Notes under the pieces: model-generated
Told to the model about the DNA's origin: nothing
Seen by the model: only the letters and a program-made list of their open reading frames with translations
The model's database searches: none
Shown: positions 3,946 through 10,049 of the stretch, in pieces
Position numbering within the stretch: the stretch's first letter is position 1
Layout: each line of letters begins with the position of its first letter
Origin: a virus
Lineage: Duplodnaviria; Heunggongvirae; Uroviricota; Caudoviricetes
Strand: one strand, 5' to 3'
Virus record (IMG/VR): IMGVR_UViG_3300009788_000100
Length of the DNA stretch: 10,164 nt
Position numbers and translations under genes: made by a program

Positions 3946-3964
3946 TCTTGTCTCCTTTGTTTCA

Positions 3965-3981
3965 GCCATCTCCCTGATGGC
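3965..3981 (-). promoter_or_regulatory. GGA-pentaloop hairpin at the predicted 5' end of the NAD operon mRNA
   Basis: GCCAUC-AGGGA-GAUGGC, located between the -10 box and the nadM SD. Confidence 0.5.
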
Positions 3982-3991
3982 CTACACTATT

Positions 3992-4020
3992 AATATAAGA
4001 TAACTCCGGCTGTTTGTCAG
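3992..4020 (-). promoter_or_regulatory. Sigma70-type promoter upstream of the NAD operon
   Basis: -35 CTGACA (4020-4015), 17-nt spacer, -10 TATATT (3997-3992). Each box matches consensus 5/6. Confidence 0.65.
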
Positions 4021-4472
4021 TCTAGTTTGAAGGGCAGCTTTGCTTGGCCCACCCCCCTTAAACTTGGCCCCCGCTCGCGCTCCTCCATCTCTCCCCACTC
4101 TTCTACGAGCTCGGCTTCTTCCCTAACATACTTGGTTATCTTTAGGGAGGCGCGGACTAGCTCACAGCCGCAGCGAACATGGTGGTCTCCGTAGAGGCTG
4201 AGGCGCTTCCAACCCCCGTTGAAAATTTCGTCGGCGCAGGCGAAGGAACATACGATGGCCGAAAAGGTGTTCCCTCGTCCGCTTCCAAGCTTGGTCGTGG
4301 CGACCTTGTCGAAGGTTCCAGACATCTCCGCCAGGTGCTGATCATTGCAGAACGCACCCATCTGGAAAAGTTTCTCGCAGCTATCACACTTGAGGGCCCG
4401 TAACTCTGGCTTGACCTCAACGGTTTGGGTCCTCTTCTTCCGAATGCTCCTCTTGAGGATTACTGTACTCAT
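4017..4472 (-). CDS. Hypothetical protein with CxxC...CSxxC (FCS/TRASH-like) zinc-binding motif
   Basis: LKCDSCEKLF...IVCSFACA; fits the packed minus-strand array. Confidence 0.6.
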   Translation of the reverse strand: MSTVILKRSIRKKRTQTVEVKPELRALKCDSCEKLFQMGAFCNDQHLAEMSGTFDKVATTKLGSGRGNTFSAIVCSFACADEIFNGGWKRLSLYGDHHVRCGCELVRASLKITKYVREEAELVEEWGEMEERERGPSLRGVGQAKLPFKLD

Positions 4473-5876: not shown

Positions 5877-6781
5877 TAGAAGTTATTCCTGCGTAGAAAA
5901 CTTGCCAGGTTTTTGTTTATTTTCGGCGGCTGTTTTTGTTCTTCAAGTCCGAGCATTTGTCCTATAGCTTTGGTATAGCGCTCCAGCGTAGTAGCGTGCT
6001 CATCCGTGAGGCAGGGAGTGGAGTTTATCTCTAAAACTAGGGGGCTGCCCTCGGGGGGCACCATGATATCTACAGCTCCCCAGTGTAGACCAAACTCAGC
6101 TATTGTTTGTTTACCCACTTGACGAAGGCTGGGTAGAACAGGGTCCTTGTGGTCTTTGGGGTAACCGAAGAACCAGCCGCTGTCGTGGTTCTTAACAATA
6201 GCGCTGTGCTGAACTCCGTCGCCTGGAAGCTTTTCCGAAATTTTTATCACCCTGTAGTCCTTGGCCTCAAGGCCGCCAAGCTGAGGGTTAGGAGCCATCA
6301 CATGAACGCGAAATTCTCGTGTATTGCGAATAAACTTTAAGAAGTGGGTTGCCCCCCTCGAAGTCGCTCTGTTGAGTTCTTGCAAAGTTTTACAATACCA
6401 CAACCCTCTTCCCCGCATATGGTGAGTTGTTCTCGCGATGACGGGGAGGTCGTGCTTTGAAACATTACTTGCCCTTAGCCACAACTGGGGAGCAGGAATA
6501 CCTAGCTGTTTAAATCGAATGCGCGCACCGCGCTTGTTTGAGCTACGAGCAACGGCTTCTGGGATGTTAAGGATATTGCTGTCATTAGCGTTGATTGGTT
6601 TATACCACCCAACATTAATAATGTGGTCGAATTTTTTTCCTTCTCTATAAAGTTTGTAAAGTCTTTCCTCTCGCCCCTTTAGGATAAGGTGACCGGCACT
6701 GGAAAATACTCTGGCTAAGTTATTTCCTAAAACCCTGCCAGACTGCAGGCCATTTTTTGCGTAGAGGATAAACAACTTCAT
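5876..6781 (-). CDS. ATP-grasp ligase (RimK-like / phage-type amidoligase)
   Basis: SSNKRGARIRFKQLGIPAP, LPVIAR, GRGLWYC, REFRVHV, KNHDSGWFF, FGLHWGAVDI, VLEINSTPCL. Start is probably ATG 6781 (ATGA overlap with the upstream stop). Confidence 0.8.
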   Translation of the reverse strand: MKLFILYAKNGLQSGRVLGNNLARVFSSAGHLILKGREERLYKLYREGKKFDHIINVGWYKPINANDSNILNIPEAVARSSNKRGARIRFKQLGIPAPQLWLRASNVSKHDLPVIARTTHHMRGRGLWYCKTLQELNRATSRGATHFLKFIRNTREFRVHVMAPNPQLGGLEAKDYRVIKISEKLPGDGVQHSAIVKNHDSGWFFGYPKDHKDPVLPSLRQVGKQTIAEFGLHWGAVDIMVPPEGSPLVLEINSTPCLTDEHATTLERYTKAIGQMLGLEEQKQPPKINKNLASFLRRNNF

Positions 6782-7551
6782 AAGTAACTCCGGTATTCTT
6801 CTGCGTTGGAGCAATAGAGATGTGCTGACCTGTCGGTGCCCTTGTATAGGCTAACATTGACTGCGCCCGGTTTAGTGTCTTCCTCCCAGTTATCCCAGTC
6901 GTTTGGTACTTCGTGCATGTCGCATATTGTTTGCATTCCCGCCGAAGCAAAAGGGTACGCTAAACAGTCGTGCATGGTGTCCTTTTCTATTCCTCGGGCA
7001 GCGCTAAAGCGGATACCGGTTACGTCACAACCCTTCAGCTTAGCTCCATAGAATTTAGTACCATGGTTGACGATAACATTTTCTAAAAGGGTTCCTTCAA
7101 TTAAAGCGTTCGAGAGGTTAGCGTTGCCAAAATTAGATCCTGACAAATGGCTAACAGTAATAAAGGCATTCTCCAGAAGAGCATTAGTAAAATCTACGGT
7201 ACCTATGCACCCATAGATCTGCAAGCTTGAAACATCGGCGCCATTAAACTCAGTTTTGTGGAAGGTACACTCGATAAAATGTAGTACGTCCGCGCCGATG
7301 TTGTCAAAACAAACTTTAGAAAGGTCACACCGGTTGAAGGTGGTGCCGCTGAAATCAGCAAGTGAAAAGTCCCAACCCTTTAACTTACAGTTTAAAAACT
7401 CACAGTCCTCAAAATACCCGCCGTCAAGGTGGCGTGCATTAGATTCGTTAATTTCTAAGCCTTCTATTCGTAGCCCTGCCCAACGCTGTCCCTCGAACGA
7501 TAAGCCTTGTTGGCACTGGTAGAAAAACTCTAACTCTCTACCTTTTTTCAC
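6778..7551 (-). CDS. Pentapeptide-repeat protein
   Basis: Long 5-residue periodicity (FEDCE FLNCK LKGWD FSLAD FSGTT FNRCD LSKVC ... LSGSN FGNAN LSNAL IEGTL LENVI); GTG start with GGAG SD. Confidence 0.88.
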   Translation of the reverse strand: MKKGRELEFFYQCQQGLSFEGQRWAGLRIEGLEINESNARHLDGGYFEDCEFLNCKLKGWDFSLADFSGTTFNRCDLSKVCFDNIGADVLHFIECTFHKTEFNGADVSSLQIYGCIGTVDFTNALLENAFITVSHLSGSNFGNANLSNALIEGTLLENVIVNHGTKFYGAKLKGCDVTGIRFSAARGIEKDTMHDCLAYPFASAGMQTICDMHEVPNDWDNWEEDTKPGAVNVSLYKGTDRSAHLYCSNAEEYRSYL

Positions 7552-8254
7552 TCAAGCTCCCCCGGAATTCATCAATGTTGGAGCACTCTAACACGGCACG
7601 TTCACCAAAGCCCCACAAGTGTTTACGGTAGTGGGTGGCAGCGGCTTCTCCGTAGTACCCTCCGCAGCTCCATTGTTCGTCGGCATCATCAAGGTGGCCG
7701 TATTTCTCCGCTGTTTCCTTCTTGGACTTTACAACCTGCTGGGCGGGGGAACGGTAGTGTTTAACAGTTTTTAGGGGTTTGGGGTCTACTAGTTCCCTTA
7801 GAGATGTTTTTATTTTTGACGGCGGAAGGGGGATTGGGTTATTCCCAACCTTCGAGTACTTAGGCGCTACTGTATAAGTGCCCCTTTCAAGGTCTAAGAT
7901 AGCCGAAATCCCTTTACTATTGCCGAGCAGTCCCTGGCAAGTCATCCCGAAATTACAGGTTGTTAAACCCTCTGTTGCCTCGAAATCAGTCCCATAAAAA
8001 CTACAACTGGAAAACTCGCATTTCCGGAAGCGCACCTTCGAGAGAAAAGCGTTATCGAAGTTACAGGCACTGAACTTGGTGTTTGTTATTAACATCTCAC
8101 GCATATCAGCGGTCACGAAGTCACAGTTGTAGTAAACACCCCCTGTGATTCGAGTTCCAACCATACGCGCTAGAAAGAAAGAAGCGTGGCGGTAGTCCCC
8201 GGTGAAGGTGTGCCCCACGGGGAAACGTTTTCGGCTGTGATTAGTATTGCTCAT
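7538..8254 (-). CDS. Pentapeptide-repeat protein with basic C-terminal extension
   Basis: YYNCD FVTAD MREML ITNTK FSACN FDNAF LSKVR FRKCE FSSCS FYGTD. Start is uncertain: ATG 8254 preferred over TTG 8341; neither has a clear SD. Confidence 0.75.
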   Translation of the reverse strand: MSNTNHSRKRFPVGHTFTGDYRHASFFLARMVGTRITGGVYYNCDFVTADMREMLITNTKFSACNFDNAFLSKVRFRKCEFSSCSFYGTDFEATEGLTTCNFGMTCQGLLGNSKGISAILDLERGTYTVAPKYSKVGNNPIPLPPSKIKTSLRELVDPKPLKTVKHYRSPAQQVVKSKKETAEKYGHLDDADEQWSCGGYYGEAAATHYRKHLWGFGERAVLECSNIDEFRGSLSEKR

Positions 8255-8271
8255 GGCTTTGTATTTAAAAG

Positions 8272-8859
8272 TTGAACGTCGGCCCCCCGGGGGCAGGCAA
8301 TGGTAACTTTCGGTATGGCCGTCCGGCGGCTTTATTAGCAATTCTCGTGGAGATACGACTGTTATCGATTAGACTGGCACTTGGACAGAATTACTGAGAG
8401 TTCTACCTTAGCTTTGTGTAACCATTGTTTCTCAGGGGGAGTAGTTCGCCCTCCGCCCGGCCAAGTATTGGGCAAGGTTTTCCTCGGTTGAGAACTAATG
8501 TTTCACAAACACAGCAGCTTCGCTCTAAGTAATTGCTGTTTAGTGCTTCACTAACATTCCCTCTAACTTCATCAAAAAAAAACGATGTCGTTAGGTTGCT
8601 TAGCCCTACAGTACATACACTGCCTGGAGGCTGCTTTTCGGTTTATGCTAAAGCATACCCCGGAAAGCATCCCATTTCCTTTTCTTAATAAAATTGCCAG
8701 GAGCGCCATGCGAGCTTGTTAGCATACAACACAAGCAGCATCTCCTTCGAGGATATGACAACACTTTCCCTTCCCGCGCTGTACATACACGTTCCAGTTG
8801 GTGTTAGCTAATCGCCGAAGTTACACATCTAACCAACCATAAAGGCGGCCGACGTTCAA
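8272..8859 (-). ncRNA. Candidate large structured ncRNA (~590 nt), unidentified
   Basis: Nested end-to-end complementarity: 8859-8847/8284-8272 (13 bp perfect), 8828-8815/8313-8300, 8814-8808/8372-8366 and 8798-8794/8377-8373, plus many local hairpins. No intact ORF of 60 aa or more inside. Confidence 0.5.
8272..8859. repeat. 13-bp perfect inverted repeat TTGAACGTCGGCC bounding a 588-bp segment
   Basis: Plus strand ttgaacgtcggcc at 8272-8284 and ggccgacgttcaa at 8847-8859. Confidence 0.95.
8403..8670 (-). pseudogene. Possible frameshifted CxxC...CxxC small protein (split at a T9 run)
   Basis: ATG 8670 with AGGA SD gives 32 aa ending TTT TTT TGA. The +1 frame continues 56 aa to TAG 8403. Overlaps the ncRNA candidate, so it may be spurious. 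Confidence 0.25.
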
Positions 8860-8862
8860 AAT

Positions 8863-9150
8863 TGGGGGCGCGGCGGGGATTTGAACCCCGCTCCACCGCA
8901 TTGTGGCTACAACAGCCAATGTTAACTAGGTCCGCACTCTGAAAATTTGTTCTCTTGTTACCGTTTTGGAGGCGGTATTCAAGTATTCCTTTTTAACAGA
9001 AGGGTCTCTAGTTTAGCCATTGGGGTGTAGCACGCGGTAAGACATATTCAGAGGGGACGGACATGCAGTCCCAATTGATTAGTGCCCTGAGGTACTCACG
9101 GAGAGGACGTGAGCAGCTCAACCTCTATAACCAGGCATGAGGTACGCGCC
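8863..9150 (-). ncRNA. tRNA-like RNA (288 nt) with ~230-nt internal expansion
   Basis: 5' GGCGCG-UA-CCUC-AUGCCUGGUUAUA-GAGG (acceptor strand plus D arm). 3' GCGGGG-UUCAAAU-CCCCGC-CGCGCC-C-CCA (T arm, complementary acceptor strand, encoded CCA). Confidence 0.55.
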
Positions 9151-9183
9151 GGGGAGATTCCACATACGAAGTGGTCACTCCCC
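9151..9183 (-). other. GC-rich hairpin immediately 5' of the tRNA-like RNA
   Basis: GGGGAG-UGA-CCAC-UUCGUAU-GUGG-AAU-CUCCCC ends exactly at the first G of the acceptor stem. No U-tract, so not called a terminator. Confidence 0.55.
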
Positions 9184-9197
9184 CCCTTCAACCTTTT

Positions 9198-10049
9198 CTA
9201 TCTCAGTTTCTTAATTATCCTCATTCTTTGTACGGCTCGCAGTGTTTCTTTTAGAATGGCCATCACTGCCTGCCGCGTAATCCTCTGATCTTGTTTGTTC
9301 GTATAGCCCAGCACCTCTAGCTGTTCTGATATTTCTTTCAGAGTGTAGTCTAGTGCTCGCATTGAAAGCACTGCGAAACGCTTTTCCCCAAGAGACTCCC
9401 GCAGCTGTTCGCTAAGCTGACGATTAGAGACTATTTCCTCTACGATTTCATTCTCTTTTGGGTACTTACTTAGGACGTCATCTGACACTACAAGAGATAG
9501 AGATTCCATTGCACGTTTGGCCAATGGGGCATACTTCATCTTTGAGTGGCCGGCGATGTTTCCTAACTTACGCTTTAGTTCTCTGAGATCCCTCAACACT
9601 AGAGGATTGAGTTCCGCTTCTATTTCATGCTCCTCTACAGCGATTATAGCTGTGATACTATCGGAGTCCTCCATAAAAAGTGGTTCTCTATCTAACAGGC
9701 GCTGCATTTGCTTAACGTACGAAGCGGCTTTAGCTACGTGCGTCGGTACATAGATAGGATTTTCATTACCGATGCAGTACTCATACATTTTACCTTTCAT
9801 ACGATAAATAGCATAGGTATGAAAGTCTGTTGAGCGCTCGGGGTTGAAGTCCCGGCAGGCAAGGACCAGCCCAAACAAAGCCTCTTGGACCAGATCGTCA
9901 TATTCCACACGAGTACGTTTGTACTTGTGAGCCATCTTTTGAATCAAGCGCAAGTACTCGTCATAGTGGCGCTCCACGTCTTTACGCGCTTGCTCGGGGA
10001 GCGCTTTAGTTTTGGTTAACAACGCCTTGTCCTCTTTGTTTTCTGCCAC
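9198..10049 (-). CDS. Sigma-70 family RNA polymerase sigma factor (group 3, FliA/SigF-like), probably phage-encoded
   Basis: Region 2 YDDLVQEALFGLVLACRDFNPERSTDFHTYAIYRMKGKM; region-4-like LGEKRFAVLSMRALDYTLKEISEQL; GTG start with GAGGG SD. Confidence 0.85.
   Translation of the reverse strand: MAENKEDKALLTKTKALPEQARKDVERHYDEYLRLIQKMAHKYKRTRVEYDDLVQEALFGLVLACRDFNPERSTDFHTYAIYRMKGKMYEYCIGNENPIYVPTHVAKAASYVKQMQRLLDREPLFMEDSDSITAIIAVEEHEIEAELNPLVLRDLRELKRKLGNIAGHSKMKYAPLAKRAMESLSLVVSDDVLSKYPKENEIVEEIVSNRQLSEQLRESLGEKRFAVLSMRALDYTLKEISEQLEVLGYTNKQDQRITRQAVMAILKETLRAVQRMRIIKKLR

Follow-up and report, generated by a model that had tools for sequence, protein, structure and literature searches.

A large structured RNA conserved behind a tRNA-like RNA in uncultivated jumbo phages of one lineage

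The window analyzed here is a 10,164-nucleotide (nt) stretch of DNA from a virus of the Caudoviricetes (IMG/VR record IMGVR_UViG_3300009788_000100). All of its genes lie on the minus strand, and a 943-nt stretch without a credible open reading frame (ORF), from 9197 to 8255, separates a gene for a protein with a sigma-70 region-2 domain (10049-9198, with its TAG stop codon at 9200-9198) from a pentapeptide-repeat gene. Two RNAs occupy this gap on the minus strand: a tRNA-like RNA of 289 nt (8862-9150), called Module A, and a large structured non-coding RNA (ncRNA) that runs from the first base of helix P1 to the last base of its 3′ strand, P1′ (8272-8859), called Module B. Module B is recognized by an inverted repeat, by its fold and by homologous modules in 14 other loci, and we consider it nearly certain that it is a conserved, structured RNA of the minus strand.

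The sigma protein of the window has 57 relatives in metagenomes, several of them on contigs of 80-315 kb. Comparison of the window with 14 further distinct loci, whose sigma proteins are 51-77% identical, gives 15 loci with Module B. The gene order is kept in every one of the 14 further loci, with a RuvB-like gene, the sigma gene, the ORF-free gap and two pentapeptide genes; across loci the gap measures 545-1030 nt, and in all 15 it contains the tRNA-like RNA followed by the large RNA. Module B is present once per locus, at a constant site, with lengths from 345 to 640 nt (about 590 nt in the window). A more distant locus, L032 (sigma protein 47% identical), has a 175-nt gap that holds the tRNA-like RNA alone, with Module B absent, and sigma relatives still more distant have no gap. 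Blastn of the region against a phage GenBank collection gave no match, nor did a pattern scan of IMG/VR with the T-arm/acceptor string; a scan of IMG/VR and the GTDB genomes with the invariant 24-nt block found neither a match nor dispersed copies. Protein-guided locus searches of IMG/VR found none, and a protein-guided search of the GTDB genomes returned just two distant sigma matches, unrelated to the RNA.

The structure of Module B is supported by its folding energy and by covariation. A 596-nt stretch of the window folds at -210.5 kcal/mol, which none of 100 dinucleotide shuffles equals (z = -5.4), and imposing the comparative helices on the window costs 2.8 kcal/mol (-207.7 kcal/mol). MAFFT alone failed to bring the long and short forms of Module B into register, whereas iterated covariance models did so. 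RNAalifold predicts 21 base pairs for five short forms and finds double changes in 15. From these five a first covariance model (R1) was made; it matched a central arm, Pc-P5-P6, at the expected coordinates in five unseen loci, and gave no match to the window's arm, also with filters off. The model rebuilt from ten loci (R2) matched the arm in 15 of 15 loci, five of them unseen; it was built without the window sequence and matches the window at 8596-8725 with E = 2.5e-6, and it has no match in L032, the locus without Module B. In the 15-row R2 alignment, 94.2% of cells are standard pairs, compared to 67.2% in shuffles, and the covariation score is 0.712, compared to 0.221 in shuffles and equalled by 0 of 500. 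Sliding the partners by 1-3 columns lowers the score to 0.04-0.14, and 14 of the arm's 18 pairs are changed on both sides. Anchored, alignment-free counts for helices P3 and P5 agree with the arm alignment. Comparison of homologues, which the preliminary description of this DNA had proposed as a check, thus finds compensatory base-pair changes in 15 loci.

The conserved fold consists of a closing rod of about 55 base pairs (bp), made of P1, P2, P3 and Pa/Pb, with side hairpins P4 and P9 at three-way junctions; the rod ends in a four-way junction that carries the Pc/P5/P6 arm, P7 and P8. Overall, the comparative model has two three-way junctions, one four-way junction and no supported pseudoknot. 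The preliminary description had proposed four nested long-range helices closing the element, and the outer two are borne out. P1 pairs UUGAACGUCGGCC (8847-8859) with GGCCGACGUUCAA (8272-8284) over 13 bp, extendable to 16/17; it is the best inverted repeat of the region, begins 3 nt past the encoded CCA of Module A (8865-8863), as had been noted, and has a matching cognate duplex in every locus. P2 (8815-8829 with 8299-8313) is nested inside P1 and is supported by the fold and by the cognate-duplex test. The letters of P1 and P2 are unrelated between loci, with complementarity retained in each. In particular, the first 30-50 nt of each module pair with its last 40-70 nt at -18 to -65 kcal/mol; cognate P1+P2 duplexes average -40.4 kcal/mol, compared to -18.9 kcal/mol (standard deviation 6.6) for 156 non-cognate combinations of 5′ and 3′ strands, and for 13 of 13 loci the best partner in the column is the cognate one. 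Because cognate duplexes outrank non-cognate ones despite unrelated sequences, P1 and P2 are conserved structure.

The conserved P3 pairs AUUAGC (8807-8812), preceded by a conserved GGCG, with GCUAAU (8334-8339). An anchored, alignment-free count over 13 loci finds canonical pairs in all 78 of its 78 cells; three positions covary, with the pair types AU/GC, GC/AU/GU/UG and CG/UA, and it also appears in the unconstrained minimum-energy fold of the window. More generally, a conserved GGCG-AUUrry lies 3′ of P2, and the partner of its AUUrry is the ryyAAU in a near-invariant block of 26 nt (8312-8337) that forms the P2/P3/P9 three-way junction. Most loci have the block as CAAUAAAGCUGCUGGACAGCCAUACC, and the window has it as UAAUAAAGCCGCCGGACGGCCAUACC (8337-8312); it consists of (P3′)AAU-AAA, the P9 hairpin GCCG-CCGGA-CGGC (8330-8318) and CAUACC. 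The P9 hairpin (GCYG-CYGGA-CRGC) covaries as well, with GCCG/CGGC, GCUG/CAGC and GAUG/CAUC stems. The third and fourth helices of the preliminary description are different pairings: the letters of its P3 (CGAUUAG at 8814-8808 with CUAAUCG at 8372-8366) are present in the window, though they have a complement in 0 of 12 homologues, and those of its P4 (ACUGG with CCAGU) are present with the 5′ strand in an internal loop of the conserved P4 domain, making both chance matches.

The P4 hairpin domain (8760-8805) has a closing stem AACAC/GUGUU and an inner hairpin at 8791-8775, and as an isolated domain it folds in 13 loci. Its size varies among loci, and an invariant GUC follows it (8759-8757 in the window). 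Past this GUC, the Pa/Pb duplex joins the strand after it (8727-8751) to the strand before CUG-P3′ (8344-8367), which contains AUCUCC, the window's form of a conserved GAGCCCC block. In 13 loci, the cognate Pa/Pb duplex, whose sequence differs from locus to locus, measures -17 to -38 kcal/mol (cognate mean -24.3 kcal/mol, non-cognate -16.0 kcal/mol). At the four-way junction, the Pc-P5-P6 arm (8596-8725), which is the R2 match, has the order GCUAACAA, P5, AUGG, P6 ... P6′, GUAUGUAC, P5′, A, Pc′; its conserved internal loops are GCUAAUAA, AUAG, GUAUGUAC (GAAGGAC in short forms) and GUAAGC, and P5 is canonical in 72 of 77 cells of an anchored, alignment-free count. The P7 hairpin (8563-8594) combines CUAAC/GUUAG and CAUCG/UGAUG around a U-run loop and is followed by a conserved GAGGGAAUG; homologues have a hairpin of different sequence at this position, followed by a conserved GAUG-type motif. 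The stem with a U-run loop noticed earlier at 8563-8594 is thus conserved in position. The P8 arm (8368-8555) is long and irregular and holds a conserved UUGGCCGGG (8464-8456). Only the long forms, the window among them, have such an arm, a rod of 150-190 nt; in the short forms a short hairpin takes its place. The internal pairing of the arm is a thermodynamic prediction with several alternatives. Two more stems of the preliminary description, within 8379-8466, fall in this lineage-specific arm, likewise with several alternative pairings. Another, at 8632-8669, is plausible on thermodynamic grounds, but P6 has a variable extension there, and one at 8714-8736 would compete with the covarying helices Pb/Pc/P5 and lacks support. 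The best-conserved nucleotides of Module B are unpaired, in junctions and loops: GGCG, GUC, GCUAAUAA, AUAG, GUAUGUAC, GUAAGC and the 26-nt P3′/P9 block.

Module B is non-coding. Its longest ORFs measure 28-77 amino acids and differ in place and frame from locus to locus, and none is conserved. It is read on the minus strand: a tally from the pair-count table of the 15-row alignment finds about 22 G-U cells in the helices of the Pc/P5/P6 arm, and these would become A-C mismatches on the opposite strand. The same strand specificity bears on the alternative, named in the preliminary description, that the module is a DNA element resembling a miniature inverted-repeat transposable element (MITE). 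The 13-16-bp terminal inverted repeat and the absence of Module B from one related locus, L032, would suit a mobile element; however, the termini differ wholly between loci while internal motifs are conserved, which is the reverse of a transposon pattern, each locus has one copy at a fixed site, the invariant block has no dispersed copies in IMG/VR and the GTDB genomes, and no target duplication is seen by eye (the flanks are AAUU and CUUU). The other non-RNA explanation, that the helices are chance complementarity, is excluded by the fold z-score and the shuffle tests. Together, a DNA element or chance pairing is barely credible as an account of Module B.

The neighboring Module A has an acceptor, a D arm, a long arm in the anticodon position, extra arms, a T arm and the encoded CCA at 8865-8863. 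It is kept in 16 of 16 loci (the 15 with Module B and L032), and its acceptor covaries across the 15 loci, for example as GGCGCG/CGCGCC, GACGUG/CACGUC, GGUGAG/CUCACC, GACAUG/CAUGUC and GGCACA/UGUGCC. ARAGORN finds no tRNA or transfer-messenger RNA (tmRNA) in the window or the 15 loci, and Rfam does not recognize Module A there at gathering scores. Because Module A stands alone in L032, it works without Module B. In that locus the tRNA-like RNA spans 3954-4124, and the ATG of the next gene lies 27 nt past its ACCA; the called GTG start at 4118 (4118-4153), which overlaps the 3′ end of the tRNA-like RNA, is probably wrong. The anticodon-position arm of Module A is a 10-13-bp stem whose loop contains CCUC (about 9107-9101 in the window), with loop letters UCCUCUC in the window, CCCUCA in L005 and L030, and UCCUCUCC in L013; the CCUC resembles an anti-Shine-Dalgarno sequence. 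Further, long-form loci have an extra hairpin between the sigma stop and Module A (about 9184-9151 in the window, minus strand, GGGGAG...CUCCCC), which could be a processing or termination signal.

Modules A and B adjoin closely. The 3′ end of Module A, whether discriminator or CCA, is joined to P1 by a trailer of 0-16 nt that is rich in A and U or in U. Both modules are built alike, with a helix between the 5′ and 3′ ends of the module itself and a U tract behind it (8862-8858 and 8270-8267 in the window), which may reflect the lineage's termination or processing signals. This proximity raises the alternative that the two are never separated and form one RNA of about 880 nt, with a tRNA-like head joined to the Module B body, as has been proposed for tRNA-linked GOLLDs. 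The short trailer fits such a molecule, as do GOLLD RNAs that hold tRNAs in their linker region; moreover, the discriminator base of Module A is variable (A, C, G or U) and CCA is encoded in some loci only, with many lacking it, which argues against a conventionally charged, released tRNA. Conversely, Module A stands alone in L032, and the trailer is AU/U-rich, like the 3′ trailers of tRNAs that nucleases cut. A permanently joined molecule is unlikely; the chances that Module B is instead a separate RNA, released via tRNA-type processing, are about even.

Known RNA families do not account for Module B. Rfam 15 at gathering scores finds no family in the window or 15 homologous loci, and a search at E <= 10, covering positions 7800-9600 of the window and 8 homologous loci, finds nothing that links Module B to a known family. 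Near Module B, the latter search returns a 17-nt T-arm match to tmRNA and a weak mascRNA-like match in the window, both in Module A; in the 8 homologues it returns two T-arm matches in Module A and two weak chance matches outside the gap. The module of L010 has one chance match, with E = 8, on the opposite strand, to an unrelated antisense RNA. Since there is no Rfam match, ROOL, GOLLD, OLE, RNase P, group I and group II introns, 6S and T-box RNAs are excluded; models of tmRNA, riboswitches and small self-cleaving ribozymes likewise have no match in Module B in the window and homologues. Literature searches found no description of a Module B RNA. It very probably lies outside all Rfam families. 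The preliminary description had suggested a large ornate ncRNA, belonging to the ROOL, OLE or GOLLD families or else forming a new class analogous to them; the large ornate ncRNA and the analogy stand, and membership does not.

ROOL (RF03087) has no match to Module B, at gathering score or at E <= 10, yet the two have much in common: ROOL averages 581 nt, compared to about 590 nt for the window's module, is borne by phages and prophages, lies beside tRNA genes, contains many multi-stem junctions and has no known protein partner or function. Size, phage context and tRNA adjacency are shared with other families as well and do not prove membership. It has been proposed that ROOL shares transcripts with tRNAs (Weinberg et al. 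2017, PMC5737381; Kretsch et al. 2025). As far as the comparative model reaches, with the inside of P8 a prediction, Module B has three junctions, no supported pseudoknot and a long 5′/3′ closing rod. Its host range differs from that of ROOL, being a lineage of uncultivated jumbo phages in subsurface and sediment metagenomes; nanocage assembly has been shown for ROOL and is a conjecture for Module B. GOLLD (RF01998) has no covariance-model match either. Like Module B, it is a large ornate phage RNA near tRNAs with a variable and a conserved part; GOLLD env-38 lies directly downstream of tRNA-Met, and some GOLLDs have covalently linked tRNAs, in the linker region (Kretsch et al.). Both GOLLD and ROOL are large phage or prophage RNAs often found beside tRNAs (Kretsch et al.; PMC5737381). 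In contrast to Module B, GOLLD is often longer than 800 nt, and its 3′ half is conserved universally (Weinberg et al. 2009; Kretsch et al. 2025). The conservation of Module B is spread over the junction strands of both halves, which pair together, and its neighbor is a non-canonical tRNA-like RNA, whereas that of GOLLD is a decoding tRNA. Module B is best read as a large phage ncRNA of a new class, one that is analogous to ROOL and GOLLD and belongs to neither.

Other systems resemble parts of the locus. In MALAT1/mascRNA and in the tRNA-microRNA transcripts of gammaherpesviruses, ncRNAs are released by tRNA punctuation; as with Modules A and B, a tRNA-shaped element abuts a second ncRNA and lets tRNA-processing enzymes define its end, although those systems are eukaryotic or viral-eukaryotic, and comparable processing at the Module A-B locus is proposed by analogy. 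The pairing of 5′ and 3′ flanks to enclose a structured RNA is known from the processing stalks of ribosomal RNA operons, 6S RNA, RNase P RNA and tmRNA, and a long end-pairing helix can be a substrate of RNase III and protects the ends. Module B is like 6S, RNase P RNA and tmRNA in its end pairing, but has no sequence or model similarity to them, and its interior fold is unrelated. Its size, multi-junction architecture and near-invariant unpaired nucleotides also resemble those of large ribozymes, and the most conserved junction, P2/P3/P9, lies in sequence beside the helices that abut the tRNA-like 3′ end, so that Module B could be imagined to process itself or to act on that end. However, no RNase P, group I or group II intron or small self-cleaving model matches the window or 8 homologous loci at E <= 10, the flanking sequences are not exons, and chemistry cannot be deduced from sequence alone; a ribozyme is very unlikely.

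The position of Module B suggests a further alternative, in which it acts in cis as a giant leader of the two pentapeptide genes, with P1′ and the U tract serving as a conditional terminator or as a switch that occludes the ribosome-binding site. In every case the pentapeptide gene directly follows the module; 17 nt separate P1′ from the ATG (8252-8254), the U tract comes right after P1′ (8267-8270), and a promoter has no room between Module B and the gene. Yet L032 retains the gene order without Module B, and a length of 345-640 nt, three multi-helix junctions and invariant nucleotides distant from the 3′ end exceed what an expression platform needs; because of these genes without the module, the size and the junction conservation, the cis reading is weakened. 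There is also no conserved alternative (anti-terminator) pairing, and riboswitch and T-box models have no match. A T-box-like sensor, in which the P9 loop (CUGGA) would pair with an NCCA end, was rejected: the loop variants CUGGA, CCGGA and CUAGA do not track the discriminator or tail (CUAGA occurs with ACCA, and CUGGA with ACUA), and the pairing does not covary with the discriminator. Taken together, a cis-acting leader is quite improbable. The U tract itself is seen directly past P1′ in most loci; in about 10 of 15, a tract of at least 3 U lies within 0-2 nt past the outer duplex, while in L005, L008, L011 and L015 it falls within the duplex's 3′ strand and in L019 a few nt downstream (the 3′ end of L018 is missing from the sequence). 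An intrinsic terminator at the 3′ end was considered and rejected, as the U tract follows a helix strand whose partner is 560 nt upstream and the terminator scan found no local G+C-rich hairpin with a 3-8-nt loop and an adjoining U tract.

On balance, Module B is probably a stable, trans-acting, highly structured ncRNA of a new class, known so far from a single uncultivated jumbo-phage lineage. Probably Modules A and B share a transcript with the upstream sigma gene, as the spacer of 5-14 nt between the sigma stop and Module A in short forms suggests, or are transcribed from a promoter inside that gene. Because Module A is tRNA-shaped and has an AU/U-rich trailer, it would naturally suit RNase P and a tRNA 3′-end nuclease of the RNase Z or RNase E type, which would cut around it, and the cut would free the 5′ end of Module B a few bases ahead of P1. 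Its 3′ end could be defined or protected by P1′ and the U tract, with the long closing rod shielding both ends; in addition, RNase III may cut the continuous P1/P2 duplex of about 30 bp. Likely binding surfaces are the invariant P2/P3/P9 junction and, in the Pc/P5/P6 arm, the internal loops; they would hold a partner protein or further copies of the RNA and so form a particle like those of ROOL and GOLLD. ROOL and GOLLD have recently been shown to build RNA-only nanocages (Kretsch et al. 2025). A stable trans-acting scaffold RNA is favored because of this GOLLD/ROOL precedent of phage-borne RNAs that adjoin or are linked to tRNAs and form RNA-only cages; that Module B is such a scaffold or a self-assembling particle, rather than a catalyst or cis-regulator, is a tentative proposal, held with less than even confidence.

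A more specific possibility is that Module B self-assembles into a dimer or a higher-order RNA-only particle via the P4 loop, which would display or enclose the tRNA-like RNA, attached either covalently or for a time only. The apical 7-nt loop of P4, AUGUACA (8786-8780), contains the palindrome UGUACA. A 46-47-nt P4 design is shared by the window, L005, L007 and L011, and the loop of the latter three is GCGUACG, so that the palindrome is CGUACG there and UGUACA in the window, with both ends altered together. This version of the proposal is unlikely; if true, Module B would be a third, structurally unrelated solution to the phage RNA-particle problem and would tie such particles functionally to tRNA mimicry. 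A GUAC-type motif also occurs in the J6/5 strand (8620-8613), where pairing with the palindromic P4 loop is possible in 3 of 4 loci by eye; the palindrome and this motif could possibly serve loop-loop dimerization or an internal tertiary contact.

Several observations weigh against the reading of Module B as a trans-acting RNA of its own class. The family is known from just 15 loci, all metagenomic, and Module B always lies directly upstream of the same pentapeptide gene. A promoter and terminator scan found no sigma-70-type promoter or canonical intrinsic terminator, although the phage's own signals may differ, and the ends, processing and abundance of the transcript are deduced from the locus itself. 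The alignment behind the pair counts was fitted to the model structure and favors that structure, although the margins are large. A complementarity search for a Watson-Crick partner of the invariant P9 loop found no consistent site, and the compensatory change in the P4 loop is a single event in 4 loci, which argues weakly for self-association.

To our knowledge, few bacterial or phage RNAs are so large and complex (the ribosomal RNAs, group II introns, RNase P, OLE, GOLLD and ROOL), and each of those we know of proved to be catalytic or architecturally remarkable. Judged by its sequence, Module B would join the small group of large ornate phage RNAs. As an independent, unrelated large RNA, it repeats the habit of ROOL and GOLLD, being carried by a phage behind a tRNA-shaped RNA and without a partner gene; this repeated genomic habit suggests that the tRNA association is functional rather than accidental. 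Moreover, its short forms, of about 350 nt with a well-defined core, offer a compact test case for structural work and processing assays.

The sequence of the window recurs in identical form on metagenomic contigs of up to 56 kb, and the sequencing runs that contain it are two DNA runs, both from subsurface metagenomes. Nearby genes in the window encode NadM-Nudix, NadE, NAMPT, the RuvB-like ATPase and an amidoligase cassette, which are typical of large phages, and the best matches of the neighboring proteins, at about 40% identity, are in jumbo phages. The Module B family shows further that jumbo-phage lineages known from metagenomes alone carry RNA genes that Rfam and ARAGORN annotation misses entirely. 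Downstream, two tandem pentapeptide-repeat genes (7538-8254 and 6778-7551 in the window) invariably lie 3′ of the large RNA. The program's ORF list begins the first of them at a TTG at 8341, within the structured RNA; the start is likely the ATG at 8254, in agreement with the gene called on public contigs. The protein that it encodes has a weak Pfam match to the anti-CRISPR AcrF8 (E = 0.003, under the family cut-off).

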